A DNA stretch of 64,000 nucleotides from a virus. Its lineage: Duplodnaviria > Heunggongvirae > Uroviricota > Caudoviricetes. Shown here piece after piece: positions 1,519 to 62,611 of the stretch. A model generated the notes under the pieces. That model saw nothing but the letters and a program-made list of their open reading frames with translations, was not told where the DNA came from and did no database searches. Position 1 is the first letter of the stretch. Every line of letters begins with the position of its first letter. A program made the position numbers and the translations under genes. The stretch is from the IMG/VR virus record IMGVR_UViG_3300025087_000051; one strand, written 5' to 3'.

Positions 1519-1568
1519 AGGTGTGGGGTTAAGCAAAAAATCTCACACCTATTTTTTTAGAAATTTTC
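1519..1568 (+). terminator. putative intrinsic terminator
   Basis: AGGTGTG...CACACCT stem followed by T7 run directly after CDS 553-1467 (loop is long, so moderate). Confidence 0.4.
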
Positions 1569-1589
1569 TCAAAAAGGTGGATAAAACCT

Positions 1590-2375: not shown

Positions 2376-2495
2376 TATGGATAAAAATCTTCTTAAAAAA
2401 TCAGGCACAGTAGCGGTAATAATTATTTTCTGTCTAGTCGTTGGATGGTTCGGTATCGAACTTTCAGAAATATTGTATTGGAGGGTAGATTGATC

Positions 2496-3077: not shown

Positions 3078-3078
3078 C

Positions 3079-5217: not shown

Positions 5218-5230
5218 AGGATATAATCAT

Positions 5231-6094: not shown

Positions 6095-6111
6095 AACAAG
6101 AAAGAAATAAT

Positions 6112-7248: not shown

Positions 7249-9014
7249 AAATATTAATATTAATAATCTCAATAATGCTGTCATTTGAATACTGCTCACG
7301 TGCAGATGTTTATATTGACCCATCAACAGGCACACCTACCCAAAATGGAACAATAGATGCTCCGTACGATTCGTGGAGTGATGTTGTATGGGCAGCAAAT
7401 ACTACTTATCGACAGAGGGAGGGGACAACCTATGTCAATACGATACGTGTAGATGTTCCAAACACCACAACATTTAACGGAACTATTACCTCATACAAGG
7501 CAATGCCAGAAGATTCCGGGAGACCTATTATTCATGGTTTAATTCCTGTCGAAGGTACGTGGACACAGAGAGCAGATGCAACTTACTATGCCACGCAAAC
7601 AACTACCTTTACGTTTAATAATGCAAACATGTGGGCTGATCAGGTAGAAATAAATCGCACTGCTGCTGCTACGACTACACCGAGCAATGCATCATGGAGT
7701 ACCGTTTCAAATGTGATTTATCTAAACGTAGGAACTTATACTTTTAGTATTGGTACATCAACTTTTGAAAGATCAAATAGCACGATCAATACCGGTATTT
7801 ATCTTTGGGACAGTAATTGCTCAGTTGTCGGCATGCAAGTGGAATGGACACCGTTTAGCGGTATAACGGGATTGTCTACTTCTGACAATATATATATTTA
7901 TGACTGTGTTGTTGAGCATTGTGGACAGAATCAATATACTTCTGGGCAAAACTGTATTCAGGGACTCGGGAATAATTGTTATATTGGAAGCTGCACTGCT
8001 AGGTATGCAGGAGATAATGGAATAGCACATGAAAATTTGGAAGGTACAGGGAATGAGAGGCCGACAAATACAGGTAATGTTGTTGAGAATTGCGAATCTT
8101 CCTTTAATTGGAATGTGGGGATTACTGTTAAAGGAGAGGGGCCTCTTTGTAATAGTGCCATTATACGGAATAACAATGTCCATGACAACGGATTGTTGTC
8201 GACTGATCTGAATCAGGACATTGACTATAATCGTTGTGGAATAAGATTACAGAACTTTTTCGGCACTGTGACTGGCAATACTATATATCGAAATGGAGGA
8301 GCAGGGATATATAGTCTCGGTTCAACAAATACTGCATACACAGATCCACAAATTACCACGATTGAATACAACGACGTTTACAATAATTATTTGGAGCAAT
8401 CAAGCGGGTATGGTAATAATCTGCCACCTACCGATTACCATCGCGGCGACAGGGGTGGGATTGCATTAATAACTCGTTATGTGACAGCAGATATAAACAG
8501 TTATTTTTCTTTGTCAAATAATACGGTACATGAAATGGGCACTGGTAGTGTTGCACTGTACTATTTTTCTTTATCAACATTCTCCGCTGTTAGTCCTGTA
8601 AAAGCTTATAACAATATTTTTATTTCGGAAGGTACTTATTCAGTACACAGAGATAAGTCTGATTTTTCAACAGGGAGTGATTTTGACAATAATGTATTAA
8701 ATAGTAATTCTCTTGTTTCGTCAGACAGAGGAATTGATGAAACATTTGCAACCTGGAATGCTAAAAGTTATGTTGGCACAGATTTACAATTTGATCCTGG
8801 ATGGGTAGGGTCTTCAACGTACAATCACAATCTTGTATCGAGCTCCCCAATACGGAATATCGGAATTGAAATTGGTACAAGAATTACCGATGTGCTTGGT
8901 AATCCTTTGTCTGGAATAAGGGATATAGGGGCTTTTGAATACCAGCCGGTTGGGAGTACCTTTTCTGGGGGAGCTTCAACCTTCAGCGGAAATACTTCAA
9001 CTTTTACAGATTGA
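7245..9014 (+). CDS. right-handed parallel beta-helix (pectate-lyase fold) protein, likely tailspike/depolymerase or adhesin
   Basis: signal peptide; repeated NxxxxNG / hNNhhhDNG-type turns (NNNVHDNGL, GNTIYRNGGAGIY) typical of beta-helix repeats. Confidence 0.6.
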   Translation: MKILILIISIMLSFEYCSRADVYIDPSTGTPTQNGTIDAPYDSWSDVVWAANTTYRQREGTTYVNTIRVDVPNTTTFNGTITSYKAMPEDSGRPIIHGLIPVEGTWTQRADATYYATQTTTFTFNNANMWADQVEINRTAAATTTPSNASWSTVSNVIYLNVGTYTFSIGTSTFERSNSTINTGIYLWDSNCSVVGMQVEWTPFSGITGLSTSDNIYIYDCVVEHCGQNQYTSGQNCIQGLGNNCYIGSCTARYAGDNGIAHENLEGTGNERPTNTGNVVENCESSFNWNVGITVKGEGPLCNSAIIRNNNVHDNGLLSTDLNQDIDYNRCGIRLQNFFGTVTGNTIYRNGGAGIYSLGSTNTAYTDPQITTIEYNDVYNNYLEQSSGYGNNLPPTDYHRGDRGGIALITRYVTADINSYFSLSNNTVHEMGTGSVALYYFSLSTFSAVSPVKAYNNIFISEGTYSVHRDKSDFSTGSDFDNNVLNSNSLVSSDRGIDETFATWNAKSYVGTDLQFDPGWVGSSTYNHNLVSSSPIRNIGIEIGTRITDVLGNPLSGIRDIGAFEYQPVGSTFSGGASTFSGNTSTFTD

Positions 9015-9063
9015 GCTAGTCAGAAGCGTTGCGGCATTTTTCGATAAGGAAAGAAAAAAGAAA

Positions 9064-9327
9064 ATGATCAAAAAATTGTTGATTACAAAATTAAAAGAGT
9101 ACGGAGAAAGCTTAATAATAAAACATGGAGAAACCGATATTGGCATGATTGGTAAAATTGTTGATGGTTATGTCGAAAAGTTATCACCGATAAAAAAAAG
9201 AATAACTAAGACTATGATCAGGCATGTAAAAAACGATATTGATAACTATGTAAAAAATGTAAAACAGAAGCAAAACAATCCTGGTACAGTTATAGACGTT
9301 GATTTTACCGTTAAAGATAAAAAATGA
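9064..9327 (+). CDS. hypothetical protein
   Basis: ORF 8935-9327, likely start at internal Met 9064 after previous CDS end. Confidence 0.35.
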   Translation: MIKKLLITKLKEYGESLIIKHGETDIGMIGKIVDGYVEKLSPIKKRITKTMIRHVKNDIDNYVKNVKQKQNNPGTVIDVDFTVKDKK

Positions 9328-9524
9328 GTAACAGATTTGTTTTTGATAAAGAATTTAAAGAAAAACTGAACGCTGTAAATGAAGCTGCACACAAATATTT
9401 TAAAATAAAAGCAGAATATGATGAAGCCACTGATAAATTACATTTACTCCTAGATAAACAAAAAGAAACCGATAAAGAATTATACCAACTTGTGAACTAC
9501 TCTAACCAATCAGAGATTGGATAG
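9324..9524 (+). CDS. hypothetical protein (3' end overlaps tnpB convergently)
   Basis: 66-aa ORF, start overlaps previous stop. Confidence 0.35.
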   Translation: MSNRFVFDKEFKEKLNAVNEAAHKYFKIKAEYDEATDKLHLLLDKQKETDKELYQLVNYSNQSEIG

Positions 9525-9640
9525 GGCTTCTTGGTTCTCAGGCAGCATCTGGCATAAGCTGCCTCCCCAAGCGTAACTTTCCGTAGTTCCTACGGTAGAT
9601 TTTTTTAGAATATTTAGTGAGGCATTGTGGTCTCTATCAA
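9440..9640 (-). ncRNA. putative omegaRNA/reRNA scaffold overlapping tnpB 3' end
   Basis: hairpins GGCAGC-11nt-GCTGCC and CCGTAG-GAA-CTACGG inside/after the last 35 codons of tnpB, the usual omegaRNA position; exact ends not determinable. Confidence 0.35.
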
Positions 9641-10670
9641 GAGTAGTACCACAAGCAAGACAAAAATGAATTCTATCTCTAAGTGTTTTCGGCACATGGT
9701 TGCCACAATGACTGCAATTTATGCTCGTGTGATGAGGCGCAACCTTCTCAAACTGAATACCAGCTTCTTCCGCTTTGTATTTCAGAAATCCGAGAAATTG
9801 TCCCCAACCAGCATCCGAAATGCTTTTGCTCAAGTGCCTATTTTTTACCATGCCTTTGATATTCAAATCTTCAACGGCAATAAAACCATAGATGTTTACA
9901 ATTTTGCGGGAAATCTTATGATGAAAATCAGACCTTTGATTTCTTATTTTGCAATGAAGTTTAGCAATCTTGATTCTTGCTTTTTTTCTGTTACGAGACC
10001 CTTTTTTCTTTTTAGAAAGCTGTCTTTGTTTAGAGACAAGTTTCTTTTCAGATTTACGAAGATATTTAGGGTTGTCTATAACTTTACCATCAGAAAGAAC
10101 AACAAAGGAGTGAATACCAACGTCAACACCAATAGCCTTATTGGGTATAGGCTTTGCGACAGGCTCGTATTCGACGGAAAAGCAGGCATACCATTTATCA
10201 ATCTCTCTTTTGATGGTGCAAGTCTTTATAATTCCAATAATGGGACGATGTATTTTTATTTTGACCGTTCCTATCTTGGAAAGCCTAAGACCTTGTTCTG
10301 TTATTTGAAATGCAGGTTCTTGTGGATAAGTAATGGAATCGTATCTGCCTTCATTTTTGAAACGTGGATAACCAACTTTTTCACCTGTTTTTATTCTGCG
10401 AAAGAAGCCCTGGAATGCTCTTTCAACTCTAAACAAAACATTTTGAAGAACTTGGGCATTAATATCATAGAGAAATCCCATCCTTTGTTTGTCGGATGTC
10501 AAAATCTTTTGTTGCTGTATTCTAGTAAGGCTTTTGCCCGATTGTTCATAGTTTCTTTTTCTATCAAACAGACAGGAATTGTAAAGGACTCGACATATTT
10601 CAAGAGTATGTTCAAGTACCTTCACTTGTTTTGTTGTAGGGTTTATTCTAAATTTGTAAGTTTTATGCAT
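9510..10670 (-). CDS. tnpB: TnpB (IS200/IS605 OrfB-family RNA-guided RuvC nuclease)
   Basis: RuvC-I GVDVGI, RuvC-II AVEDLNIKGM, zinc finger CSHCG...CLACG, RuvC-III RDHNASLNIL; N-terminal FRINPT...VLYN typical of TnpB. Confidence 0.9.
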   Translation of the reverse strand: MHKTYKFRINPTTKQVKVLEHTLEICRVLYNSCLFDRKRNYEQSGKSLTRIQQQKILTSDKQRMGFLYDINAQVLQNVLFRVERAFQGFFRRIKTGEKVGYPRFKNEGRYDSITYPQEPAFQITEQGLRLSKIGTVKIKIHRPIIGIIKTCTIKREIDKWYACFSVEYEPVAKPIPNKAIGVDVGIHSFVVLSDGKVIDNPKYLRKSEKKLVSKQRQLSKKKKGSRNRKKARIKIAKLHCKIRNQRSDFHHKISRKIVNIYGFIAVEDLNIKGMVKNRHLSKSISDAGWGQFLGFLKYKAEEAGIQFEKVAPHHTSINCSHCGNHVPKTLRDRIHFCLACGTTLDRDHNASLNILKKSTVGTTESYAWGGSLCQMLPENQEALSNL

Positions 10671-10671
10671 C

Positions 10672-10791
10672 TATTTTTTTCTGTTCCAATAAGGACTTTT
10701 ACATTTAGGGCAAATAACAACCTCAGACTTTCTTGGTGTCCATAGATGTTTGCATCTTTCACAGGCAAGTTTAATAATTTTAATTTTCATA
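10672..10791 (-). CDS. zinc-ribbon micro-ORF immediately upstream of and abutting tnpB
   Basis: 39-aa MKIKIIKLACERCKHLWTPRKSEVVICPKCKSPYWNRKK, CxxC...CxxC; stop abuts tnpB ATG (coordinates approximate to 1-2 nt). Confidence 0.3.
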
Positions 10792-11786: not shown

Positions 11787-11884
11787 AGGCCTTCGGGGGG
11801 TTTTTCTATCGGGGTAATGACGGTGGCGGTGATTAGTGGGGAATAACGCCGTGTGCCATGCAAGTGTAGTCGGCTATCGCCGAC
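11787..11884 (+). repeat. structured intergenic element, copy A (family of four)
   Basis: GC-rich hairpin+GGGGTTTTT, conserved TCTATCGGGGTAATGA, AACGCCGTG, 3' hairpin GTCGGC-TATC-GCCGAC; homologous to 12560-12680(-), 32609-32721(+), 54733-54847(-). Confidence 0.6.
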
Positions 11885-12559: not shown

Positions 12560-12680
12560 GCCTGCGACAGCAGGCTACATCTTGGAATAACCCACGGCGT
12601 TGCAAGTACGTTTGTTTCGGCGCAACTTCATTACCCCGATAGACAAAACCCACAGCCGATAGGCTGATTTAGAAGAGATT
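12560..12680 (-). repeat. structured intergenic element, copy B (inverted relative to A)
   Basis: reverse complement reads CAGCC-TATC-GGCTG TGGGTTTTGTCTATCGGGGTAATGA ... CAACGCCGTGGG ... GCCTGC-TGTC-GCAGGC. Confidence 0.6.
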
Positions 12681-14074: not shown

Positions 14075-14734
14075 ATGGATCGAAAATTAGCAGAATTTTT
14101 ATCTAAAAAATTCAAAATTGATATTTCTCAAATAGTAAGAGAGTTTTGGGAAATGGTAATATTGTATGAAATATCAAAATCTTCTGTAGGTAAGTGGTTG
14201 ATATTCAAGGGTGGCACAGCGTTAAGACTTTCTTATAATTCTCCAAGATTTTCGGAGGATTTAGATTTTTCTTTAATACGAGACAAATTAAATATTAACC
14301 AATTTAAGAAATTGTTGGTAGATATAATTAATGAATATCCAAATGTTTCAATTGATGATTTTTGTGAAAAATATAATACATACTTTGGGGAATTAAAAAT
14401 AATTGATAATATTTTGCCATATCCATTTAGGCTAAAAATAGAAATATCAAAGAGAAAGATCAGTAGCTATGCTTACGAACCAAGATTTATTGTATCGGAC
14501 GCAGTACCGGCAAGATTTATAATGAATGTTTTCACAGTAGATCAAATATATAAAGATAAAGAGGATTGTATCAAAACAAGAGCAAAACCGAGAGACTATT
14601 TCGATCTGTGGTATATTTCTCAAATAATTGGATTACCATATAAATTTAAAAGTAAAATTAACAAGATAGAAATAGTCAGAGAAATGAGAAAATATTTGCC
14701 TAGAAATTTGTACCAAGTAATAGATTTATTGTAA
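14075..14734 (+). CDS. abiEii: AbiEii-family nucleotidyltransferase (type IV toxin, DUF1814-like)
   Basis: FKGGTALRLSYNSPRFSEDLDFSL = hGGTAL...SEDLDF NTase signature. Confidence 0.7.
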   Translation: MDRKLAEFLSKKFKIDISQIVREFWEMVILYEISKSSVGKWLIFKGGTALRLSYNSPRFSEDLDFSLIRDKLNINQFKKLLVDIINEYPNVSIDDFCEKYNTYFGELKIIDNILPYPFRLKIEISKRKISSYAYEPRFIVSDAVPARFIMNVFTVDQIYKDKEDCIKTRAKPRDYFDLWYISQIIGLPYKFKSKINKIEIVREMRKYLPRNLYQVIDLL

Positions 14735-26039: not shown

Positions 26040-27005
26040 ATGACAAATCTTATTCCGATTGATAATCAGCAAAATAATCAAATAAAGCTATACAAGGAAA
26101 CTTATTTTGATCTGGTTGATAGATTTCTCGCTGTCTCAGACATTGTTCCAAATTCTAAAAAATTCTACAAAAAAATATTGAGATATTGGTATGAATGGTG
26201 TGAGGAAAATAACGTTACTACTCCGACAAGGGAACACATATTGATTTATAAAAATTCACTAAATATTAAATCTCGATATACTCAGGCAGCTTACTTATCT
26301 GTTGTTGGAGAATTCTATAATTGGCTCGATATTGAAGGTATTTATAAAGATATTACAAAAGGAATCAAGGTTAAACATAGACAGGTCGATCAGCATACCA
26401 GAAGTAAATTAACTCTTGAAGAAATTCACGCACTGTTAAACAGTATCGACACCAGCACTTTTACAGGAAGTAGAGATTTTGCTATGATAAATCTTATGGT
26501 GCGAACTGGATTAAGAATGATTGAATTGAACAGAGCAGATGTGAACGACTTTTTCTTTTTAAATGATAGAAGGGTTTTGTACGTACAAGGCAAGGGACGT
26601 ATCCAGAAAGACGAGTTTGTGATTATTAATGAAGAAACGTACAAACCTTTGGAAAATTATATAAATACGAGACAATTTTTATCAGTTACCAATAACAATC
26701 AACCTCTTTTCGTTTCTCATAGTATTCGAGGTTCTGTAAACGATCCAAACAAGACGAATCGGAGGCTAACCGTAAACGCTATCAGATATATTGTGTGGAC
26801 AAGGCTAAAGCAAGCCGGTATTAAGCGAAAAGACATTGTGGGGCATTCGCTTAGACATACAACGGCAACACTCGCTATAGATGCTGGCGCTACCATAGAA
26901 GAGGTTCAAGCACTAATGAGACATAAAGACCCTCGAACTACCATGATTTATATTAAAGAAAGAAACAGGTTTAAAAATGCGGCAGAAGATAAGATAAAAA
27001 TTTAA
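26040..27005 (+). CDS. int: tyrosine recombinase / phage integrase
   Basis: C-terminal catalytic box GHSLRHTTAT...LMRHKDPRTTMIYIKE (R, HxxR, Y nucleophile). Confidence 0.9.
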   Translation: MTNLIPIDNQQNNQIKLYKETYFDLVDRFLAVSDIVPNSKKFYKKILRYWYEWCEENNVTTPTREHILIYKNSLNIKSRYTQAAYLSVVGEFYNWLDIEGIYKDITKGIKVKHRQVDQHTRSKLTLEEIHALLNSIDTSTFTGSRDFAMINLMVRTGLRMIELNRADVNDFFFLNDRRVLYVQGKGRIQKDEFVIINEETYKPLENYINTRQFLSVTNNNQPLFVSHSIRGSVNDPNKTNRRLTVNAIRYIVWTRLKQAGIKRKDIVGHSLRHTTATLAIDAGATIEEVQALMRHKDPRTTMIYIKERNRFKNAAEDKIKI

Positions 27006-32608: not shown

Positions 32609-32721
32609 TAAATGTCGCCTGTGGCGGGGGTTTTGTTTGTCGGGGTAATGGGACGGTACGAATACAAACAAGCAGTCAACGCCATTGGGCATACGAAACA
32701 ATATGGCTGGCTGTCGCCAGC
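32609..32721 (+). repeat. structured intergenic element, copy C
   Basis: AAATGTCGCCTGTGGCGGGGGTTTTGTTTGTCGGGGTAATGG ... CAACGCCATTGGG ... GCTGGC-TGTC-GCCAGC; ~85% identical to reverse complement of copy D over first 42 nt. Confidence 0.6.
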
Positions 32722-35045: not shown

Positions 35046-35171
35046 ATGAAACGTATCAATTGCCATTTAACAAATCTTCAAATCAAACAATTAAAAAAAC
35101 TATCAAAAGAAGTTGGGCTGTCGGTTGCTGAAATTATTCGCCGAGCAATAGATGAATATATAACAAAATGA
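35046..35171 (+). CDS. ribbon-helix-helix micro-protein translationally coupled to tnpB
   Basis: 41-aa MKRINCHLTNLQIKQLKKLSKEVGLSVAEIIRRAIDEYITK; stop TGA overlaps tnpB ATG (ATGA). Confidence 0.45.
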   Translation: MKRINCHLTNLQIKQLKKLSKEVGLSVAEIIRRAIDEYITK

Positions 35172-36292
35172 AAAAGACATTTCTTTATCGTGCGAAAATA
35201 AACAGACAGACAGAATCTAATTGCTGTCGATGGATTGAAATTTGTCGTGATGTTTATAACTCCGCATTAGGGCAAAGAATTAATACGTACAAGGAAGCCG
35301 GAAAATCTATAACCAAAAACAATCAAGTAACACAATTACCTTTAATTAAAAAAGATTTTCCAAGTATTAAGATAGTTAGCTCTCAAACACTTCAAGATGT
35401 GATTGAACGTCTCGATAAAGCCTATAAAGCATTTTTTCGTAGAGTAAAGTTTGGAGAAAAAGCCGGATTTCCCCGTTTTAAGAATCGAAACAGCTATAAT
35501 TCCTTCACCCTTAAACAGCATGGATATAAACTTGATGGTAGGTATTTATATATTAAAAACATTGGCAGGTTCAAACTCTTTCTTTCCAGACCGATTGAAG
35601 GAAACGTCAAAACCGTTACCATCAGAAAGATGCCTACAGGTAAATGGTATGTATCTTTTTCTTGTGATGATGTTTCTGCCAAGCAAGTCTCAATAACCGA
35701 TAAAATCATAGGAATAGACGTAGGAATTAAAAATTTCTGTGTTGACAGCGAAGGAACATGCGTTAAAAACCCTAAATTTTTATTTGATTCTGAAAAAGAA
35801 CTTAGACGTAAACAGAGAAAACTTTCCAGAAGAAAAAAGTGTTCTAGCCACTGGAACAAAGCAAAAATATTAGTTGCTAAAGTGCATGAAAAAATAACAA
35901 ATCAAAGAAAAGACTTTTTACATAAGATTACCAATAAATATATTAATAATTTTCAAACTATTTATATTGAAGATTTAAAGATTAAAAATATGGTTAAAAA
36001 TAGATATTTGAGCAAATCTATTTCAGACAGTAGTTGGGGTACTTTCTTTCGGTTTCTTTCTTATAAAGCTGAAAATGCTGGTAGGAAAGTAATTAAGGTG
36101 AACCCTGCCAATACTTCACAAAAATGTTCTACTTGCGGAGAAAAAGTCCAAAAATCTTTATCTGTTCGTATACATTCGTGTTCTTTTTGTGGCTTGAAAA
36201 TAGATAGAGATTTGAATGCTGCAATAAATATAAGTCAGGATGGGCAGTCCTGTCAGGCATTAACTAATGATATGTTAGAATTGGTAGCCTGA
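35168..36292 (+). CDS. tnpB: TnpB (second, divergent copy; ~40% identity to 9510-10670)
   Basis: IGIDVGI, YIEDLKIKNM, CSTCG...CSFCG, RDLNAAINI. Confidence 0.9.
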   Translation: MKKTFLYRAKINRQTESNCCRWIEICRDVYNSALGQRINTYKEAGKSITKNNQVTQLPLIKKDFPSIKIVSSQTLQDVIERLDKAYKAFFRRVKFGEKAGFPRFKNRNSYNSFTLKQHGYKLDGRYLYIKNIGRFKLFLSRPIEGNVKTVTIRKMPTGKWYVSFSCDDVSAKQVSITDKIIGIDVGIKNFCVDSEGTCVKNPKFLFDSEKELRRKQRKLSRRKKCSSHWNKAKILVAKVHEKITNQRKDFLHKITNKYINNFQTIYIEDLKIKNMVKNRYLSKSISDSSWGTFFRFLSYKAENAGRKVIKVNPANTSQKCSTCGEKVQKSLSVRIHSCSFCGLKIDRDLNAAINISQDGQSCQALTNDMLELVA

Positions 36293-47082: not shown

Positions 47083-47289
47083 ATGACAACAGACAATATA
47101 AATCATCCGCCACATTACAAATCAAACGGTATGGAAGCTATTGACGTGATAGAGGCGTTTGGTCTTGGATTTCATCTTGGTAATGCCATGAAATACATTC
47201 TTAGAGCTGGCAGAAAAACAGAAGACGATACGGAAGATACAAAAAAGGCTATTTGGTATTTAAATCGTTATTTAGGAGAAAAACAGTGA
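47083..47289 (+). CDS. DUF3310-like phage protein
   Basis: NHPPHYKSNGMEAIDVIEA pattern recalled from phage DUF3310 family (from memory). Confidence 0.45.
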   Translation: MTTDNINHPPHYKSNGMEAIDVIEAFGLGFHLGNAMKYILRAGRKTEDDTEDTKKAIWYLNRYLGEKQ

Positions 47290-48824
47290 AAATAATTAAA
47301 CCGTCAATTGAAATTTTAGACGTATTAGACCAAACCACTATTTTGAAAAGATTGGAATTAGTTGGAAGGACTTGCTATAAATCAGAAGATAAAATAACCG
47401 ATAATTCTTGTGTTGAGTTTATCAGAAAGATTATTAAGTCTGGACACCATTCCATAATTGAACATTACGATATTTCGGTTAGAGTAATATGTGATAGGGG
47501 CGTTACCCACGAAATAGTTAGACATAGAATAGCCAGCTATGCTCAGGAATCTACACGATATTGTATATCGGGAGACATGGGTTTATCTTTTAAAAATCCT
47601 CATCAAAAATTTACTGTGAGCCAACTTTATAACAATCGAATTAACTCAAAAAATAATTCGTGGAAAAGAATGTTTATTAAACAACTTAACGAAGACACCG
47701 GATATATCACTTTTGACAAAATAAAAAATATTGTTTATACAGGATTTAAAGAGGTAGTAAAAATTACTACTTCTCTTGGGTATTCTCTTATTGTTACGCC
47801 AGATCATAGAATAAAAACCAGTTATGGATATGCAAGGGCAGACAGTTTAGCGGGAAGGGAGATAGCTGTAAATGGAATTGGAATTTGTACAACAAAACAT
47901 GCCTACCAAGATAAAGATTGGCTTAAATATCACTATATTGTGTTAAACAAAACAGCAGTACAAATTGCCAATGATTTAAAAGCTAGTACCTCTGCCGTTA
48001 AGAAATGGATAAGATTGCATGGCTTTGCGAATACTAAACCAAAAAGCTATTGGAATAAGGGAAGAAAACCCTGGAATAAAGGACTTACCGAAAGCAATGA
48101 TATAAGAATCAAAAAACAAGGAGATGCCCTACGAAAATTCGGATATAGAAAAGGAGAAAAAAAAAGACAGAAAACAATATCTATAAGAACTTATCATAAA
48201 ACCGTAAAAGATAAATGTGTTTTGTGTGGAGGTTGTTTATCCCTTCATGTTCACCACAAAAACAGCAACAGGATGGATAATTGTACTGACAATTTGATAA
48301 CCTTATGCCCCTCTTGTCATGGGGGTGTCCATAATAAAAATCTATCATTTGTATATTTTGATAAAGTAGTATCCATAGAAAAATTGCCTAATACTATTCC
48401 TGTTTATGATATTGAGATGGGAGGGCAATATCATAATTTTGTAGCAAACGGTGTGGTTGTGCATAACTGTAATTATGCAAGCGGTAAATTTGGAAATGAA
48501 ATCACTGTTATTGAACCTTGTTTTTGGAATATAGATAACGATGAAAAGATGTTAGTATGGGAATTAGTCATAAAAGCCTCAGAAGCCGCATATCTCAAAC
48601 TTATAGAACTTGGAGCAACTCCACAAGAAGCGAGGAGTGTGCTTCCAAATTCTTTGAAAACAGAAATAATTGTTAAATTCAATCTTCGAGAATGGAGACA
48701 TTTCTTAACTTTGAGAACTTCTAGGGCTGCTCATCCACAAATGAGAGAAGTGACAAACATGATACTAACAGAGTTTAAATCAAAATTACCAATTATTTTT
48801 GAGGATATATCCAATGAAAATTAA
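47253..48824 (+). CDS. thyX: flavin-dependent thymidylate synthase ThyX interrupted by an HNH intein
   Basis: N-extein IVRHRIASYAQESTRY (RHRx7S...SxRY ThyX motif); C-extein ARSVLPNS...NLREWRHFLTLRTS; exteins total ~221 aa. Confidence 0.8.
   Translation: MVFKSLFRRKTVKIIKPSIEILDVLDQTTILKRLELVGRTCYKSEDKITDNSCVEFIRKIIKSGHHSIIEHYDISVRVICDRGVTHEIVRHRIASYAQESTRYCISGDMGLSFKNPHQKFTVSQLYNNRINSKNNSWKRMFIKQLNEDTGYITFDKIKNIVYTGFKEVVKITTSLGYSLIVTPDHRIKTSYGYARADSLAGREIAVNGIGICTTKHAYQDKDWLKYHYIVLNKTAVQIANDLKASTSAVKKWIRLHGFANTKPKSYWNKGRKPWNKGLTESNDIRIKKQGDALRKFGYRKGEKKRQKTISIRTYHKTVKDKCVLCGGCLSLHVHHKNSNRMDNCTDNLITLCPSCHGGVHNKNLSFVYFDKVVSIEKLPNTIPVYDIEMGGQYHNFVANGVVVHNCNYASGKFGNEITVIEPCFWNIDNDEKMLVWELVIKASEAAYLKLIELGATPQEARSVLPNSLKTEIIVKFNLREWRHFLTLRTSRAAHPQMREVTNMILTEFKSKLPIIFEDISNEN
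47562..48467 (+). other. intein (302 aa) with HNH homing-endonuclease domain inside thyX
   Basis: starts CISGDMG (block A), HVHHKNSNRMDNCTDNLITLCPSCHGGVHN HNH, ends VYDIEMGGQYHNFVANGVVVHN followed by +1 Cys. Confidence 0.8.
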
Positions 48825-53263: not shown

Positions 53264-54070
53264 GTGGCTACAGTAAAATCTGAGAAAAGAGTTTCAACAT
53301 ATCATGGGATTGAAAACTTATTCACCCCTGATGTTTTTTTCAACTTGATGGGCTGGACAGACAGAGAATGTCATACGGAAAGAATAAGATATGCAATTAG
53401 TAATTTTCATTATGCAGCAGGAGAAAAATTATCTTTTATTTTTGGAACTGAAAAGTTTGGAAATATTACAAGGGCAATAACAAGTTTGGGTGTTTTGTCT
53501 TTGGCTAGGTTTCACAATATTACCAATGAACAGATAGAAAAAATCATAGAAGATAGTAAGGGGAAAGGTTTTGAATTATTGAAAAAAGAAATTGAGTATA
53601 TTTGTTCATGTAGAAATATACATGCAGATAAAATAAAAGAAAAATTAACCGATATTACAAGTTTGTATGGTGGTAATAAATATAATAATATTTTGCGTAC
53701 AATGCTGAACATGAATGCAAATGATAGTGATATGGAAAACAGAAAAACAATAAATATCAACGCATTCCAGTTTAATACTATTTGCGAAAAAGAATTGAAT
53801 GAAAATATGTATAAATTGCAAAGAAATAGCGAAAATTGCGTTGTGAATATTTATATATCTAAAATCGTAAGCCATATCAATAATAAAATAAGAACTAACT
53901 ATAGGCGAAACGATACAAAATCTGAAATATGTCGTGGAGCGCACGTTGCAGGTTTGTATATTGTTTCAAAATGGATAATAAATGGTACATTGCCAAAGTA
54001 CGATGAATATTATTCGGCAAGTTTATTGTCTGATATTAAAGATGTTGTCTATTCTAATATTAAAGGATGA
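53264..54070 (+). CDS. hypothetical protein (GTG start)
   Basis: 268-aa ORF; AAAGGAACGGTGATGTGGCTACA. Confidence 0.45.
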   Translation: MATVKSEKRVSTYHGIENLFTPDVFFNLMGWTDRECHTERIRYAISNFHYAAGEKLSFIFGTEKFGNITRAITSLGVLSLARFHNITNEQIEKIIEDSKGKGFELLKKEIEYICSCRNIHADKIKEKLTDITSLYGGNKYNNILRTMLNMNANDSDMENRKTININAFQFNTICEKELNENMYKLQRNSENCVVNIYISKIVSHINNKIRTNYRRNDTKSEICRGAHVAGLYIVSKWIINGTLPKYDEYYSASLLSDIKDVVYSNIKG

Positions 54071-54400
54071 AAATGGCTAAACGTCTTTATGTCTTTATGA
54101 CTTTATGTCTTTATGTCTTTATGGCTGTACAAAGGGATGGAAATCAAAAATTTTCATCCGTTTATATGGCTAAACGTCTTTATGTCTTTATGACTTTATG
54201 TCTATATGACCGAATGGTCAAATGTCTTTATGACTTTATGGCTAGTATAAAGGGATGCTAGAAACGTGTAACGTAGTAAGGAAAATTTTTTCCTGTGTTT
54301 TTGTTAAATAAGTTGATAATGGCTAAATGACTGTATGGCTGTATGACTATGTGGCTAAATGACTAAATGGCTAAATGACTAAAAAGAACGAGGTACTTAA
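54070..54400 (+). repeat. tandem/micro-satellite-like repeat array (iteron-like)
   Basis: 38-nt ATGGCTAAACGTCTTTATGTCTTTATGACTTTATGTCT exact duplicate at 54073 and 54166; 8-10-nt units (GTCTTTATG, ACTTTATG, GGCTAAATGAC x3-4). Confidence 0.7.
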
Positions 54401-54402: not shown

Positions 54403-54573
54403 ATGATAAATCCAAGTACAATGAGTAACGGTAAGCCAACATGCTGTCCCTTCTGTTTGAGACCTTACGTTGAGCTTGACGGCAAAATAGTACCGGAATG
54501 TCTTTGTGGATCGTACTTTACAGCTAAAGAATTATGCGGCAGGCATGGGGTGAAGAATTGTCCAAGATGTTAA
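54403..54573 (+). CDS. zinc-ribbon micro-protein
   Basis: 56 aa; CCPFC ... CLC ... CPRC. Confidence 0.35.
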   Translation: MINPSTMSNGKPTCCPFCLRPYVELDGKIVPECLCGSYFTAKELCGRHGVKNCPRC

Positions 54574-54732
54574 ATCAAAACCAATACCTAAGGAAACGCT
54601 ATAATATTCGATTTAAGCCGTTTTTCTATTTCGGCGTGTCTGGGTCGAGGGATGGTGTCCATGTGGCAAATTTCATTAAAAGCGATACGCTTGGCAGTGT
54701 TATTTTTGATTGTGGTGGATGTCGGCGATCTT

Positions 54733-54847
54733 CGGCTGGCGATAGCCAGCAACATTTGTTGTGTCCCGCCCACGACGTTGACTACTTGTTTGTGTTGCAA
54801 CGGCACATTACCCCGATAAACAAAACCCCCGCCACAGGCGACATTTG
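54733..54847 (-). repeat. structured intergenic element, copy D (inverted)
   Basis: reverse complement AAATGTCGCCTGTGGCGGGGGTTTTGTTTATCGGGGTAATGT ... CAACGTCGTGGG ... GCTGGC-TATC-GCCAGC. Confidence 0.6.
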
Positions 54848-54879
54848 GTTATTGTTTTTGAATTATTTAATTTTTGCTA

Positions 54880-54908
54880 TTGACAGTTTCTAGAAAACAA
54901 ATTATATT
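54880..54908 (+). promoter_or_regulatory. sigma70-like promoter
   Basis: TTGACA-17nt-TATATT. Confidence 0.5.
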
Positions 54909-54959: not shown

Positions 54960-55142
54960 ATGGTACTGTCCGTCCTCGAGGAAGTGGAAAGTTTCAAAAA
55001 TATTACTATTAGTGTTCCGGTGGATCAATACAAAAGATTGCAAGAAATAGCGAGAAGAAGCACTCTGTCGATTTCAAAGCTTGCAAAAAAAGGAATTGAG
55101 TTAGTGTTGAATGAATACGAATACGAATTCAAGAAATCTTAA
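54960..55142 (+). CDS. ribbon-helix-helix DNA-binding protein
   Basis: AAAGGAGAAATTTTT-ATG; ITISVPVDQYKRLQEIARRSTLSISKLAKKGIELVL RHH pattern. Confidence 0.45.
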   Translation: MVLSVLEEVESFKNITISVPVDQYKRLQEIARRSTLSISKLAKKGIELVLNEYEYEFKKS

Positions 55143-56930: not shown

Positions 56931-58868
56931 ATGAATTACGATAATTTTCTTACTCATAAAAAACAGCAAGGATCTAATCATGGATTTGATCCTACATTTG
57001 TTCCAGATTATTTGTTTGATTTTCAAAAAAGTTTGGTTGAATGGGCTGTAAATAAGGGTCGTAGTGCTATATTTTCTGATTGCGGCACAGGAAAAACTAT
57101 TATGGAGCTTGTGTGGGCATACAACATAGTAAGAAAAACAAACAAAAATGTATTGATATTATCACCGCTGGCCGTCTCTTGGCAAACCGCAAAAGAAGCG
57201 GAAAAATTTGGAATTGAATGTAAGGTATCAAGGGATGGTAAAATTAACAGCAAAATAACAATTACCAATTATGAACAATTACATAAGTTTGAACCGTCTG
57301 ATTTTGTCGGTATTGTATGTGATGAGAGTGGAATATTAAAATCGTTTAAAGGTGCATTAAGAAAAGAAATAACAATATTCATGCGTAAAATTGAATATAG
57401 ATTATTAGCTACGGCAACGCCAGCTCCGAACGATTATATTGAATTGGGAACTTCGTCTGAAGCCTTGGGATATCTAGGTGCAATGGATATGTTAAATAAA
57501 TTTTTCAAAAACGATCAACACAATAGCAAAGTGGGAAGATATAGAGGACAAGAAGTTAAATGGAGATTGAAAGGTCATGCAGAATTACCTTTTTGGAGAT
57601 GGATATGTTCTTGGGCTAAAGCAATGAGAAAACCATCTGATTTAGGTTTTGACGATAATGGATTTATATTGCCAGAATTAATAATTAATCAAACCGTTGT
57701 AAAATCTAATAGTCTTCCTAAGGGTAAATTATTTTCTATGCCAGCGATAACACTACAAGAACAAAGAGAAGAAAGAAGAAGAACTATAATGGAAAGATGT
57801 GAGATGGTCGCCAGCAAGGTCAATACTGGTAAACAAGCATTGGTTTGGTGTCATTTAAACGACGAAGGAGACTTGTTAGAAGCACTTATTCCTAATTCAA
57901 TACAAGTAAAAGGGTCTGATTCTGTTGAATGGAAAGAAGCAGCGGCTGAATGGTTCGTTGGAAATAAATGTATTTGCAATGATAATATGTTTCGTGCTAA
58001 ACTTTTAGCATGGAAAAGAGAAAAACAAATCTTGAATACCATCGCCGATACTATCAAGAACATCGAGAGGAACGATTGCGTCAATCCATCGAATACCAGC
58101 GAGCACATAAAGTTGAACGAAAATCTTATCTATCAGAATATTACAAACACAACAGGGGGAAATGGGTGCGGACACAAAAACAAAAGGATGAAAGAAATAG
58201 AAGACGACGAGAGCGATATGCAAATGACGAAAAATTTCGTCTCGCTAAAATTGAAGAATCAAAAGAAACAAGAAGAAAAAACCCAGACACTCGGCTCAAA
58301 TATTGTCTTAAAAAATATGGTGTGTCCATCGAAGAATATCGAAAACTTGAATCAAAAGGATGCGCAATCTGCGGAAGAAAAGAAAACGGAGATATTCGAG
58401 GACACCGATTCCACATCGATCACTCCCACGATACTGGAAAATTCAGAGGGGTACTGTGTACAGGATGCAATCAAGGACTCGGAAAGTTTGGTGACGACCC
58501 TAAACGGCTCGAAAATGCCGCCATGTATCTGCGGGCATAAGACAGGACGTCGCATCCTCATAAGCAAGCCTGTCATGTTTGGGTATGGCTTAAATTTCCA
58601 ATGCTGTAATTATATGGTTTTATTCCCTTCCCATAGTTACGAACAATATTATCAAGTAATCCGCCGGTGTTGGCGTTTCGGACAAAAAAATCCAGTAACA
58701 GTAGATATTATAACAACGGAAGGGGAGTCAAGAATTATAAACAATTTACAAAGAAAATCTAAACAAGCTGATGAAATGTTTGAAAGATTAATTAGCGAAA
58801 TGAATCATGTGTTAAATATAAATCGAATGGAAGAATATTCACAAAAAATAATACTTCCTAATTTCTAA
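56931..58868 (+). CDS. SNF2-family helicase carrying an in-frame 555-nt insertion that encodes an HNH endonuclease in another frame
   Basis: motif I SDCGTGKT, II CDESG, III LLATATPAPND, V RILISKPVMFGYGLNF, VI QVIRRCWRFGQ; middle 185 codons low-complexity. Confidence 0.7.
   Translation: MNYDNFLTHKKQQGSNHGFDPTFVPDYLFDFQKSLVEWAVNKGRSAIFSDCGTGKTIMELVWAYNIVRKTNKNVLILSPLAVSWQTAKEAEKFGIECKVSRDGKINSKITITNYEQLHKFEPSDFVGIVCDESGILKSFKGALRKEITIFMRKIEYRLLATATPAPNDYIELGTSSEALGYLGAMDMLNKFFKNDQHNSKVGRYRGQEVKWRLKGHAELPFWRWICSWAKAMRKPSDLGFDDNGFILPELIINQTVVKSNSLPKGKLFSMPAITLQEQREERRRTIMERCEMVASKVNTGKQALVWCHLNDEGDLLEALIPNSIQVKGSDSVEWKEAAAEWFVGNKCICNDNMFRAKLLAWKREKQILNTIADTIKNIERNDCVNPSNTSEHIKLNENLIYQNITNTTGGNGCGHKNKRMKEIEDDESDMQMTKNFVSLKLKNQKKQEEKTQTLGSNIVLKNMVCPSKNIENLNQKDAQSAEEKKTEIFEDTDSTSITPTILENSEGYCVQDAIKDSESLVTTLNGSKMPPCICGHKTGRRILISKPVMFGYGLNFQCCNYMVLFPSHSYEQYYQVIRRCWRFGQKNPVTVDIITTEGESRIINNLQRKSKQADEMFERLISEMNHVLNINRMEEYSQKIILPNF
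57978..58532 (+). mobile_element. inserted segment carrying HNH gene, bounded by 9-bp direct repeat TGTATTTGC / TGTATCTGC
   Basis: 555 nt (3 x 185) purine-rich, GC-richer than flanks; removal restores ...GNKCIC-GHKTGRRILIS... SNF2 motif IV-V spacing. Confidence 0.6.
58010..58540 (+). CDS. HNH homing-type endonuclease
   Basis: CAICGRKENGDIRGHRFHIDHSHDTGKFRGVLCTGCNQGLGKF. Confidence 0.75.
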   Translation: MEKRKTNLEYHRRYYQEHREERLRQSIEYQRAHKVERKSYLSEYYKHNRGKWVRTQKQKDERNRRRRERYANDEKFRLAKIEESKETRRKNPDTRLKYCLKKYGVSIEEYRKLESKGCAICGRKENGDIRGHRFHIDHSHDTGKFRGVLCTGCNQGLGKFGDDPKRLENAAMYLRA

Positions 58869-59905: not shown

Positions 59906-62611
59906 ATGGAAATCTCGAACAAAATCCCATTTTCTAATCCTAAATTTAAAAAAGGATTAACACCGCTACAGCACAAAACCGTCACGGACGTGCTATCAAG
60001 CAGAAAAACAATAACGATGATTAATGCTCCCACCGGATTCGGGAAGACTCCGACAGCTATGACCCTTGCCCACCATATAAACTACCCGAACCAATCTCTA
60101 TATCTTTGTAGTTCTAAAATTTTACAAGATCAATTGGCTGGGGATTTTACAGAAGCGTATCAATTAAAAGGGCGGGGAAATTATCCGTGCACACTTCTAC
60201 CCACCTATAATGCAGACCGATGCTTCCAACAATGCGATGAATATAAGTGCGGTGAAATTTCATGCGCTTATGAAGATGCGAAAAAAGAAGCCTTATCATC
60301 AACTTTTACCATTCTCAACATGCACTATTACGAGACCGAAACGAATTTTGTCGGTAGATTTTCAAAGCGTAAAACCGTAATAATTGACGAGGCAGATGTA
60401 TTAGAAGATATTTTGATAGATTTTATCGCACTAGACGTCCATCCGAAAACATTGGAAAAATTCAAGCTGGATCAGCCCAAATATGTGACTAAGTTAGATT
60501 CATGGAAGGAATGGGCGGATAAAACATTAAAAATATTAGAAGAAAAAGTTAAAAAGCTAAGAGCCGCCGAAGACCACTTGGATAGAGAATCAAAATTAGA
60601 ACTAAGTAAATTGTTGAGAATGTGTCTGAAATTAAATATGCTAAAAAACGATATAACGGAAGAGTGGATATTCGACCATGCCGAAAAATTTCGCTTTCAA
60701 CCTCTCTGGCTAGACACAAAACTTACCCAACAATATTTACTCAAACATGCGGAAAGATTCGTTATGATGTCTGCGACCATGCTCCCGAAAGTTATAGCGT
60801 GTAAATTATTGGGATTAGATATTAACGATGTGGATTATCACGAGATAGATTCACCTATACCCGTAGCGAATCGTCCCATTGTTTATAAGCCAATTAAAAA
60901 GCTAAAATACGGTGAATCAGAAGAAGATGTTTATAATGAAATTAAAAGATTGATAGAAGGGTACAAAGGAATTAAAGGGATTATTCATGCTGTGAGCTAT
61001 ACCCGTGCAAAGGCAATAGCAGGACTGGACAAGCGTTGCATCACTCATAATACCTACGATAAAAACGAAAAAATAAAACAATTCATAGACTCAAAAGATG
61101 GGATATTGGTAAGCCCATCGTGTGATCGTGGACTTGACCTGCACGGCGATCTAGCAAGATTCTGTATAATTCCAAAAGTTCCGTTCCCGAACACAACGGA
61201 CAAGGTGGTCTCCAAGCGTTTGTACAGCTCTCCCTTTGGTAGGGTATGGTACAGGGCTGTAACGGCGCAAACCATTGTTCAGATGGCGGGGCGTACTACT
61301 CGATGTTTTAGCACAGACACAGAAATCTTAACGATACATGGATGGAAAAAATACAACGAAGTAAATATGCACGATAAAACTTATTGTATTGATCAGAAAT
61401 CTTTTAACAATAAAACTAAACGTCCAGTTATGGAGGGTTCTTCGATATTAGTAGAAGGAGAAATAGAGGATGTCTATACATCAGATAAAGAAGAAAAAGT
61501 TATTAATATTAAAAATCAAAACATTGATGCTTTAGTTACTCAAGACCACGACATGATTGTTCAAATGAGAAAACAGAAAACTTATAGGGGGAAGTATAAA
61601 AAACCTTATGGAGTTTATGATTGGAAATACTGTCATCGTACAAATAGTCATGGATTAGAAAAAATAAAAGCATCTAAATTACCAGACAGATTTAAAATAC
61701 CACTAGCAGGAAAAATTATACGCAAAAACAAATCTCGTGCTAAAAAAGAATGGTTCTGGCTGATAGGTTTCATAATAGGGGATGGACATATTCATAAAAA
61801 CAAAAACGTCGTAACAATACATCAATCGGAAACCAACATAGACTTAATAGAAAAAATCAGAAAAGTTCTTGGTATACTTAAAATAGAATATTCAGAATAC
61901 AGACGACAAGTAAAAGGAACAAAAATAAATTTAAACGATAAGGAGTATTCAAGAAAAGAAGATATGATAAATTTTCAAATAACGGGTAAGTCTTCTTCGA
62001 TGATTAGGGATATGTTTAATAATGGCAAAAGAAGAAGGTATTCAAAAACAGTAACATACGTACAAAGAACTCACTTTTCTTTTAGTAAAAAAATAGGGGG
62101 AAAGCATAAAATAGATGGGTGGAAAGAAGTGGAAAAAATCATACCAAGATGGTGTCTGGAGAAGGGGTCGAAATCCCAACTTATTAAATTAATTCATGGT
62201 TTGGTTGACAGCGACGGAAGCTGGAAAAAAACTAATGGTAAATATAATAAAAACGTTGGAGGTTTTTACAACAAAAATAAAATCATAATAGATGCTTTTC
62301 AGGAGTTGTGCGTATTGACAGGATATAGAAGTTTGATTCGTAACAGAAGGAATCAATACGAAGTTTCCTTTTGTTGTCCCTCCATGATTGACTGTACGAA
62401 AAATAATGATGTAAAAGACGGAGGGATGTCTAAGGTGTGGTGTGTTAAAACAAATCATGGAAATGTTATAATGAGGAGAAATGGTAAACCTTTTTTGTGT
62501 GGAAACAGTGCCAGCGACTTTTCCACTGTTCATATACTGGACGCTGCTTTTGATTCGGTCGTAGAATTTGTCCCGAAATGGTTTCGAGATGCAATCAAGG
62601 TTGAATTTTAG
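59906..62611 (+). CDS. DinG/Rad3(XPD)-family FeS helicase interrupted by a LAGLIDADG intein in motif VI
   Basis: motif I NAPTGFGKT, four-Cys FeS cluster, DEAD box, motif VI QMAGRTTR | intein | SASDFSTVHILDAAF. Confidence 0.8.
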   Translation: MEISNKIPFSNPKFKKGLTPLQHKTVTDVLSSRKTITMINAPTGFGKTPTAMTLAHHINYPNQSLYLCSSKILQDQLAGDFTEAYQLKGRGNYPCTLLPTYNADRCFQQCDEYKCGEISCAYEDAKKEALSSTFTILNMHYYETETNFVGRFSKRKTVIIDEADVLEDILIDFIALDVHPKTLEKFKLDQPKYVTKLDSWKEWADKTLKILEEKVKKLRAAEDHLDRESKLELSKLLRMCLKLNMLKNDITEEWIFDHAEKFRFQPLWLDTKLTQQYLLKHAERFVMMSATMLPKVIACKLLGLDINDVDYHEIDSPIPVANRPIVYKPIKKLKYGESEEDVYNEIKRLIEGYKGIKGIIHAVSYTRAKAIAGLDKRCITHNTYDKNEKIKQFIDSKDGILVSPSCDRGLDLHGDLARFCIIPKVPFPNTTDKVVSKRLYSSPFGRVWYRAVTAQTIVQMAGRTTRCFSTDTEILTIHGWKKYNEVNMHDKTYCIDQKSFNNKTKRPVMEGSSILVEGEIEDVYTSDKEEKVINIKNQNIDALVTQDHDMIVQMRKQKTYRGKYKKPYGVYDWKYCHRTNSHGLEKIKASKLPDRFKIPLAGKIIRKNKSRAKKEWFWLIGFIIGDGHIHKNKNVVTIHQSETNIDLIEKIRKVLGILKIEYSEYRRQVKGTKINLNDKEYSRKEDMINFQITGKSSSMIRDMFNNGKRRRYSKTVTYVQRTHFSFSKKIGGKHKIDGWKEVEKIIPRWCLEKGSKSQLIKLIHGLVDSDGSWKKTNGKYNKNVGGFYNKNKIIIDAFQELCVLTGYRSLIRNRRNQYEVSFCCPSMIDCTKNNDVKDGGMSKVWCVKTNHGNVIMRRNGKPFLCGNSASDFSTVHILDAAFDSVVEFVPKWFRDAIKVEF
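61304..62506 (+). other. intein (401 aa) with LAGLIDADG homing endonuclease
   Basis: begins CFSTDTEILT; LIGFIIGDGHI and LVDSDGSW motifs; ends NGKPFLCGN then +1 Ser. Confidence 0.75.

Follow-up and report, generated by a model that had tools for sequence, protein, structure and literature searches.

A tandem array of 8-nucleotide units beside the gene for a predicted ribbon-helix-helix protein in a groundwater phage: a probable binding partner and candidate roles

What is the function of a run of short direct repeats that follows directly upon a phage gene? This question is raised by a 64,000-nucleotide stretch of DNA from a tailed phage (Caudoviricetes; IMG/VR record IMGVR_UViG_3300025087_000051), hereafter called the window, in which positions 54073-54382 are occupied by a repeat array. 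The array begins 2 nt past the stop codon of a gene for a 268-amino-acid protein, p268 (53264-54070, plus strand, GTG start). A previous reading, made from the sequence alone, described the array as iteron-like and listed an origin of replication, a packaging site, and a partition site as its candidate roles, and it did not name a likely binding protein. Our analysis points to p268, which is predicted to be a single-chain tandem ribbon-helix-helix (RHH) protein, as the proposed binder, and we consider it probable that the array is its cognate multi-site target. The joint claim that p268 binds these repeats and that a higher-order complex forms on them is one that we also favor, with somewhat less assurance.

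The array is composed of 25 head-to-tail units of 8 nt, all on the plus strand, which follow the pattern A-T-G-N-C-T-W-W and are distributed among three blocks of 7, 10, and 8 units. Among the 25 units, the first three positions are A, T, and G in 24, 23, and 25 cases, the fourth is variable (9 G, 8 T, 8 A, and 0 C), and the fifth and sixth are C and T in 24 and 23 cases, followed by the two W positions. Block A (54073-54128) consists of ATGGCTAA, ACGTCTTT, ATGTCTTT, ATGACTTT, ATGTCTTT, ATGTCTTT, and ATGGCTGT. The ten units of block B (54166-54245) include two degenerate members, units 6 and 7, that create a small palindrome (TGACCGAATGGTCA). In the eight units of block C (54319-54382), ATGGCTNN and ATGACTNN alternate to give a 16-nt super-period, and the block ends 20 nt before the next start codon. 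The 38-nt exact duplicate reported by the sequence-only reading is present (54073-54110 and 54166-54203) and corresponds to the identical beginnings of blocks A and B. That reading also distinguished two types of unit. Its second unit, GGCTAAATGAC, does recur three times in block C, and the repeats themselves are genuine, but their division into separate types does not hold: as judged by Tandem Repeats Finder (TRF) and a repeat finder, both belong to a single family with a strict 8-nt period, and the second type is simply block C. Self-match at a lag of 8 nt is 0.55, compared with 0.26 ± 0.04 at other lags. The dimer pattern ATGNCTNNATGNCT, with at most one mismatch, has 22 matches in the window versus 3.7 ± 1.9 in shuffles; 20 of the 22 fall inside the 310-bp array, and the in-phase set of 25 units is found in the window at this locus only.

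If the array serves a protein, it should be possible to find it elsewhere beside the same gene. Orthologues of p268 with 67-77% identity are present in other groundwater data sets, and 14 loci (given L numbers here) were fetched. Each of the 11 loci with DNA past p268 (68-76% p268 identity to the window) carries tandem arrays at the same position. The absence of the array from close relatives, which had been named as grounds for discarding the earlier proposal, was therefore examined and not encountered, and the term iteron-like is apt insofar as it denotes a protein-binding type of repeat array that is kept in place in all relatives with enough downstream DNA. Three of the 11 (L027, L028, and L039) end within the first block. 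The three remaining contigs of the 14, which end inside the gene or a few dozen nucleotides on, are uninformative. The arrays of relatives begin at the p268 stop codon or a few nucleotides past it and usually follow the order block A, block B, a conserved core, and block C; across the window and its relatives they comprise 25 to about 45 sub-sites. When window proteins were searched against these loci by tblastn, p268 was always found directly upstream of the arrays, and zn56, a 56-amino-acid, Cys-rich, zinc-ribbon-like protein (54403-54573, plus strand), was usually found downstream. The arrays stay with p268 even where the downstream genes differ: a small RHH gene present in the window is absent from L026 and L029, and in L037 another small ORF (open reading frame) lies between block C and zn56. 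In L031, the p268 orthologue and the arrays are separated by an IS605-type TnpB gene (2514-3719; OrfB_IS605 / Cas12f-like TNB domains) that runs on the opposite strand and is inserted precisely between the two.

The units of these arrays are not those of the window. Lag analysis and TRF indicate that most relatives have 7-nt or mixed arrays rather than 8-nt arrays. The units are heptads in L026 and L033 (GGATAAT / AGATAAG) and in L029 and L034 (AGATAAY), 7-8 nt in L030 and L036 (CTGATAWW / GGGATAT), 8 nt in L039 (GGATAAAT), mixed 7-8 nt in L037 and L038 (TGTATAAA / TGTCTAAA / GATAAAT), and 15-nt composites in L031 and L032 (GATAAATGNTGTCTT). Periods of 15, 22, 29, and 37 nt in relatives reveal that single arrays combine 7-nt with 8-nt units. 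At the fifth position of the unit, relatives carry A (ATGGATGT), whereas 24 of 25 window units carry C (ATGGCTGT). Inverted blocks are present in L030 and L036. Two likenesses of the heptads to known motifs were considered and dropped, namely that of the reverse-complemented heptads (TTATCCA) to DnaA boxes and that of the GGA-containing heptads to CsrA sites; the window units have neither motif. The comparison also bears on a 64-amino-acid ORF called on the plus strand across blocks A and B (54067-54261), which on the evidence of the relatives is a repeat artefact and no gene, as the sequence-only reading had suspected. No counterpart occurs across the relatives' arrays, and such an ORF is impossible in the heptad arrays because TAA closes every one of the three frames.

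Between blocks B and C lies a conserved unique core, AACGTGTAACGTAGTAAGGAAAATTTT (54263-54289, plus strand), that occurs once in the window. Its consensus among relatives is AACGTG(G/T)(A)AACGTAGTA-N-GGAAA(A)TTTT, in which AACGTAGTA, the GGAAA motif, and the TTT run are invariant in seven loci. The core can be read as two heptads, GTGTAAC and GTAGTAA, that are like the GTRTAAC unit of a distant homologue (L045, discussed below), followed by the near-invariant GGAAA(A)TTTT. Because the 12-mer AACGTGTAACGT is common to the window core and the L045 array, a likeness reached by 5 of 2000 shuffles, the core looks like two units of an ancestral type. An AT-rich spacer of modestly low stability (54290-54318, plus strand) separates the core from block C and is present in all relatives with variable sequence. 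The spacer between blocks A and B holds a 10-bp hairpin, GGATGGAAAT...ATTTTCATCC (54135-54159, plus strand), which is probably incidental because it is not kept in relatives, whose A-B spacers differ. The right arm of this hairpin, ATTTTCATCC (54150-54167), can pair with either of two left arms, which are GGATGAAAAT at the p268 stop codon (54057-54074) and GGATGGAAAT after block A (54135-54144). These alternative hairpins could bracket block A, and they too are not kept in relatives.

Which protein might read these units? An AlphaFold (AF2) model of p268 built on an alignment of 38 diverse homologues has a pLDDT (predicted local distance difference test) of 93.4 and a pTM (predicted template modeling score) of 0.90. 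Only this alignment gave a confident model, and one based on 16 close sequences was unusable (pLDDT of 53). The model contains only two long strands, at residues 38-45 and 192-199, each of which is followed by two helices, and a helical insert at residues 88-183. The two predicted strands pair into one antiparallel ribbon made from two beta-alpha-alpha motifs, which is the structural hallmark of RHH proteins. Thus, p268 is predicted to hold two RHH half-motifs in one chain that form a single antiparallel beta-ribbon, as in TraY of the F plasmid. The upstream GTG-start genes had been regarded by the sequence-only reading as a pair of paralogs. This part of the earlier description is not borne out, as the likeness is limited to the first 7 residues, with BLASTP E values of about 0.6-0.9.

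If p268 reads the array, its DNA-contacting residues might be expected to vary with the units. In the predicted strands, residues 41, 43, and 45 and residues 194, 196, and 198 are hydrophobic and presumably face the protein core. By analogy with other RHH proteins, residues 40, 42, and 44 and residues 193, 195, and 197 would then face DNA. Positions 193 and 195 are the 7th and 8th most variable of the 268 across 12 orthologues, and they are located within strands that are otherwise invariant. The residues at positions 40, 42, and 44 / 193 and 195 are RRA / VN in the window, where the 8-nt unit holds GNCT, and RRA / MN in L039, which has the 8-nt unit GGATAAAT. They are RR(A/S) / CT in L026 and L033 (GGATAAT), KRS / GV in L029 and L034 (AGATAAY), KHS / (S/G)V in L030 and L036 (GATAT-type units), KWA / SA or GS in L031 and L032 (15-mers), and KRT / RD in L037 and L038 (GTATAAA-type units). 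Phylogeny can be partly controlled for by means of an identity matrix. Among proteins that share 80-86% overall identity, those with the same ribbon set have the same units (L026/L033, L029/L034, L030/L036, and L037/L038), whereas at equal identity those with differing sets have differing units (L039 versus L037/L038, L029 versus L030, and L034 versus L036). This apparent co-variation of ribbon residues and unit type is supportive rather than conclusive.

Homologues that are far more distant also adjoin repeats. A profile search of 1.8 billion representatives placed the p268 family in 39 clusters at 50% identity, all of about 270-310 amino acids, and five distant members (L044-L048) were recovered. 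Two of these, L044 and L048, end too soon past the gene to be informative. In L045 (31% identity), four copies of GTTACANN, a GGGGG run, and three to four copies of GTRTAAC start 5 nt past the stop codon. In L047 (24% identity), four copies of GACTACAN, GGGG, and TGTAGC start 1 nt past it. The units of both loci converge around the G-run, and L046 has a weaker set of GGTACNNN. The repeats of all three are followed by an HTH_17 (Xis-like) gene, which in L047 comes after a 64-amino-acid ORF, and a tyrosine integrase gene is next in L045 and L046. No match to p268 or to two distant homologues was found in INPHARED by tblastn. A five-unit scan of IMG/VR yielded 22 contigs with homogeneous 8-mer arrays that fit ATGNCTNN (L001-L022), several of them contigs of giant-virus metagenome-assembled genomes, with examples such as ATGTCTAA x6-10, ATGACTTT x13, and ATGGCTGG x15. 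None of these has a p268-like gene, and we took them to be unrelated minisatellites; the scan was run without a control pattern.

Considering these data, we propose that each p268 ribbon would read, in the major groove, a single asymmetric unit of 7 or 8 bp and that neighboring p268 molecules would touch, such that each block of 7, 10, or 8 units becomes cooperatively coated. Such coating would follow the example of ParG, whose dimers bind ACTC boxes set apart by 4-bp AT spacers, or of omega, whose dimers bind heptads. Flanked by the three coated blocks, the conserved core would present two ancestral-type units, then GGAAAATTTT, and then the AT-rich spacer. Protein and array would diversify together, with the ribbon specificity residues changing along with the unit sequence, and p268 would act as a site-specific organizer beside its own gene. 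The last step is the weakest: the complex might mark a cis-acting origin-type DNA-processing site, most likely the start of phage replication.

Given binding by p268, such an origin-type role is our tentative choice, held at somewhat less than even chances. We favor it because the site is single-copy, because variable repeat blocks flank a conserved unique core, and because the site is directly 3′ of the gene for its proposed binder, as the ori of Staphylococcus aureus pathogenicity islands (SaPIs) is 3′ of rep (PMC9371898). We favor it also because the surrounding genes form a DNA-metabolism cluster (recombination, nucleotide metabolism, and helicases) that has no recognizable initiator, and because the closest fold relatives, TraY and VirC2, act beside DNA-processing sites. 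As at iteron origins, the arrays adjoin the gene of the proposed binder, and the unit sequence differs between relatives. The protein itself does not belong to a known initiator class (winged-helix Rep, helicase-initiator, or DnaA-like), since it has no P-loop and no family match and is predicted to have an RHH fold. If p268 binds, a smaller share of the probability goes to a role as transcriptional operator or roadblock, and what is left goes to segregation, packaging, or other roles.

Several observations weigh against parts of this proposal. With regard to the origin role, the AT-rich spacer ranks only at the 14th percentile of the least-stable 40-bp windows by nearest-neighbor calculation. 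The cumulative GC skew is monotonic and uninformative about an origin because all genes are co-oriented. The distant sites fill a 78-190-nt gap upstream of the HTH_17 gene, which gives them an operator-like look. Moreover, the iteron initiators known to us are winged-helix or helicase proteins rather than RHH proteins. With regard to the fold, Foldseek picked an archaeal-virus RHH domain for p268 (probability of 0.94) and returned no significant global match to its model from PDB or BFVD. None of the 38 family members matches a Pfam RHH model, the six members scanned have no matches in NCBIfam, and a sequence-profile search of PDB with the p268 family also gave no match. With regard to coating, a rigid cooperative filament is hard to reconcile with a period that changes between 7 and 8 bp, even within a single array, and p268, at 31 kDa, is bulkier than the ParG, omega, or MetJ dimers that would fill a 7- to 8-bp unit. 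Finally, the co-variation rests on a small sample of 12 orthologues in four clades.

The most serious rival accepts p268 as the binder. It holds that p268 coats the arrays as an operator or roadblock, in the style of omega, ParG at OF, or MetJ, to limit expression of downstream genes. The genes affected would be zn56 in the window and, in the distant elements, the HTH_17 (Xis-like) gene together with its integrase, and the diversification of units would then reflect heteroimmunity. Most RHH proteins are repressors that act on tandem sub-sites. Block C comes within 20 nt of the zn56 start codon, the repeats of L045, L046, and L047 sit in a short gap upstream of the HTH_17 gene (with a tyrosine integrase next in the first two), and convergent units around a G-run are found in L045 and L047. 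Sigma-70-like hexamers also occur at the start of block C in L036 (TTGTCA-16-TATACT) and L033 (CTGACA-17-GATAAT), and the OF operator offers a precedent (PMC3130281). However, no promoter is placed consistently across the relatives, and the best candidate at this site in the window matches at no more than 8 of 12 positions; promoter scans gave no support for a promoter inside the array or core. The core is unique and has no promoter features, and thus is not a promoter class. In addition, 25 to about 45 sites in three blocks far exceed the need of one promoter, and the strong promoter at 54880-54908 described below has no units near it. We regard this reading as a close rival and a possible explanation, though a doubtful one.

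It is also conceivable that p268 is the wrong protein and that a product encoded nearby binds the array. The candidates are zn56, the usual immediate neighbor of block C, and the 60-amino-acid protein of the small RHH gene (54960-55142), which matches Pfam RHH_3 and RHH_1 and is encoded 580 nt downstream of the array. The latter gene is present in only some relatives (tblastn) and is missing from L026 and L029 despite their large arrays, and it was rejected as a universal partner for this reason. zn56 has 73-84% identity in eight relatives (tblastn), but its linkage to the arrays is not strict, as illustrated by its separation from them in L037. It does not co-vary with unit type, and its N-terminal 40 residues are nearly identical across phages that differ in units and periods. 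Moreover, neither protein was detected on those distant-homologue contigs that still carry repeats. A binder other than p268 therefore seems improbable. No family match for zn56 was obtained, and INPHARED holds no match to it.

An equally improbable explanation is that the array is a partition centromere, at which an RHH protein recruits a segregation ATPase for a plasmid-form prophage, as ParG does at parH of TP228 or omega at parS of pSM19035. Large contiguous arrays of 7- to 8-bp units bound by RHH proteins are a hallmark of type Ib/II centromeres (PMC3130281, PMC9499535). The window locus, with 7, 10, and 8 contiguous direct repeats beside a gene for a predicted RHH protein, has blocks of that order, and diversification of specificity is typical of incompatibility determinants. 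The partition site suggested by the sequence-only reading nevertheless finds no partner. A ParA-type Walker motif (KGGxGKS/T) is absent from ORFs of at least 90 amino acids in the window and a further 10 kb, and among the ORFs scanned with Pfam and PHROGs none matched the ParA, ParM, or TubZ families. The genes flanking p268 are unrelated to partition, the phage has a tyrosine integrase, and the distant homologues are in integrase-bearing elements.

The packaging site that had been suggested is less probable again. A pac or cosB-like site would use the repeats to position terminase beside a conserved cleavage core, and variable repeats beside a conserved core are also the layout of lambda cosB/cosN. 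Some assemblies do break inside the array (L025 at 54102, L027, and L028). Such breaks are explained by the exact repeats, and other assemblies of the same genome break elsewhere (at 48705 and about 300 nt past the window end). Furthermore, the neighbors are DNA-metabolism genes, the ORFs scanned with Pfam or PHROGs, in the window and in the next 10 kb, gave no terminase match, and the short contigs of small integrative elements with p268 homologues show no packaging genes. We assign a similarly slight chance to an RNA-level element (a leader, a 3′ untranslated region, or a sponge for an RNA-binding protein), to a functionless slippage-prone minisatellite, or to a true small protein gene. Probable co-transcription with p268 with no terminator between, the greater ease of flexible 7/8-nt spacing under single-strand recognition, an RNA fold z-score of -3.0, and GGA motifs in the relatives' heptads could be cited for the first of these, but the hairpin that drives the z-score is not kept in relatives, the GGA motif is absent from window units, the inverted blocks of L030 and L036 and the convergent distant sites fit duplex DNA, and Rfam covariance models at the gathering threshold gave no match in the whole window, which also has no tRNA or tmRNA. 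The conserved position, block structure, and co-variation with a protein oppose neutrality, and the ORF is not conserved.

The source genome offers some context for these possibilities. Rifle aquifer metagenomes contain the exact p268 protein on contigs about 78.5 kb long, and the copies examined are identical to the window. Three assemblies of this genome break at three places, which are window position 54102 (L025, inside block A), position 48705, and the site about 300 nt past the window end, and these differing break points are consistent with a circular map. The break at 54102 is expected because exact repeats break assemblies. Other public contigs that end in arrays or a few nucleotides from a p268-family gene are L027, L028, L039, and L044, and breakage of short-read assemblies at arrays is probably the reason that the contigs of most family members are only 1-2 kb long. 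The samples are 0.1-0.2 µm groundwater filters from Rifle and Hainich. The genome has a GC content of 33%, with all genes on one strand. Its recognizable products in the neighborhood include ThyX with an intein, an SbcC-like ATPase, a radical-SAM protein, SNF2- and XPD-like helicases, a methyltransferase, an RNA ligase, HNH nucleases, a PDDEXK nuclease, and a tyrosine integrase. Among the ORFs scanned with Pfam and PHROGs, in the window and a further 10 kb, none was recognizable as a polymerase, primase, initiator, terminase, or ParA-like protein. The scanned ORFs likewise yielded no relaxase or HUH nuclease, although many ORFs have no family match and its absence is thus unproven. The 5-kb region around the array has no DNA match among INPHARED phages, and neither protein patterns of the p268 family nor the conserved core detected the lineage in IMG/VR or GTDB genomes.

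Several other features of this genome deserve mention. Most large ORFs in the whole window and in L041 have no PHROGs or Pfam match, among them those at 553-10745, which are presumed to be structural genes, and one of 542 amino acids beyond the window. The ThyX gene (47253-48824) is interrupted by an intein with an HNH domain, and the XPD-like helicase gene (59906-62611) carries a LAGLIDADG intein. A 176-amino-acid ORF with HNH-like sequence motifs (58010-58540) lies in another frame within the SNF2-like helicase gene (56931-58868), and a TnpB-like ORF is located at 35168-36292. An AbiEii-type nucleotidyltransferase toxin domain (14075-14734) and the tyrosine integrase (26040-27005) suggest that the phage is probably temperate and has a gene of the toxin-antitoxin or abortive-infection type. 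Downstream of zn56 is a GC-rich non-coding element of about 250 nt (54600-54850) with terminator-like hairpins, which is kept at the same position in L030, L034, L037, and L038. An inverted partial copy is found 22 kb away (32610-32721; 81% identity over 113 nt), with short pieces near 11794-11819 and 12629-12651. This element could be a miniature inverted-repeat transposable element, an insertion-sequence-end-like element, or a structured RNA; a three-sequence alifold yielded no convincing covariation, and there is no Rfam match. It is followed by a near-consensus sigma-70-type promoter (54880-54908; TTGACA-17-TATATT, 11 of 12 positions) ahead of the small RHH gene, and the two together look like the start of a separate operon.

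These findings could matter in several ways. The p268 family is uncurated, with no Pfam or NCBIfam match, and has gained predictions for both its fold and its DNA target. For the present groundwater phages of the Rifle and Hainich aquifers, which have almost no annotatable genes, a cis-acting site is thereby paired with a candidate trans-acting factor. The pairs of ribbon residues and units, including the change from 7 to 8 bp, would form a natural series for how RHH proteins re-specify recognition and spacing. There is also a caution for annotation, in that such arrays break assemblies and yield spurious ORF calls. More speculatively, p268 and its array might represent an unrecognized class of cis-acting organizer modules, present in phages and in small integrase-bearing elements, and a new class of RHH-fold initiators. 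In such modules, p268 would nucleate replication or another DNA-processing event at the conserved core, and the hypervariable ribbon residues, the units, and the period would co-diversify into incompatibility or immunity groups among co-occurring groundwater phages. We regard this broader proposal as possible but unlikely as it stands.

How does the locus compare with systems already known? The arrays of omega (ParB-pSM) overlap promoters. Like the inc18 heptads of pSM19035, which are contiguous 7-bp repeats, the arrays of most relatives of the window phage consist of several blocks of 7-nt units. Omega, a small homodimer whose partner is the delta ATPase, needs at least four contiguous heptads (PMC9499535), whereas here no such partner ATPase was found among the ORFs scanned, there is no clear promoter, and the period is 7 or 8 bp. 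In the parH and OF sites of TP228, one ParG dimer occupies each ACTC box, and the array becomes cooperatively coated; the 4-bp AT spacers give an 8-bp period, and the boxes number 8 in OF and 12 in parH (PMC3130281). The window array shares this 8-bp period and the prevalence of direct repeats, and its unit can be read as GNCT plus a WWAT spacer. Unlike p268, which is a single chain of 268 amino acids encoded upstream of its proposed sites with no ParA-type partner found, ParG is a homodimer of 76-amino-acid chains encoded downstream of its sites with the ParF ATPase. The RHH units of MetJ bind successive 8-bp metboxes and make protein-protein contacts along the DNA. MetJ uses two to five palindromic boxes at promoters and a SAM (S-adenosylmethionine) co-repressor, whereas the window units are asymmetric, far more numerous, and not associated with a recognizable promoter.

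Other systems are closer in layout. A predicted RHH protein and a conserved core plus variable repeats recall oriT-type sites. However, F-plasmid TraY has 131 amino acids and binds a few sub-sites beside the relaxase nick site, whereas p268 is twice as long, has an inserted domain, and adjoins arrays of 25-45 units; in contrast to TraY and VirC2 at oriT and overdrive, no relaxase or HUH nuclease was identified in the window. A pac or cos site is a poorer likeness, with no terminase match nearby and assemblies that break at three different places. Octamer iterons are known for the alpha protein of P4. At SaPI origins, short iterons with element-specific sequences are located 3′ of rep, with sets of them to either side of a central AT-rich region (PMC9371898), and the window array resembles them in that its repeats are directly 3′ of the gene for the proposed binder and flank a central AT-rich region. 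SaPI Rep differs in being a helicase that reads 5- to 6-nt iterons by a winged-helix domain, with 6-12 iterons in opposite orientation on the two sides. In the window, p268 has no P-loop and a predicted RHH fold, the blocks run in one direction, and the central spacer is not marked by low stability. By analogy, the element thus seems to resemble systems of RHH proteins with tandem sub-sites in its working and SaPI- or oriT-type sites in its layout, while missing a defining feature of each. What sets it apart is the combination of a predicted single-chain RHH protein with an inserted domain, a gene directly 5′ of its own array, 25-45 sub-sites, and a change from 7 to 8 bp among close relatives.

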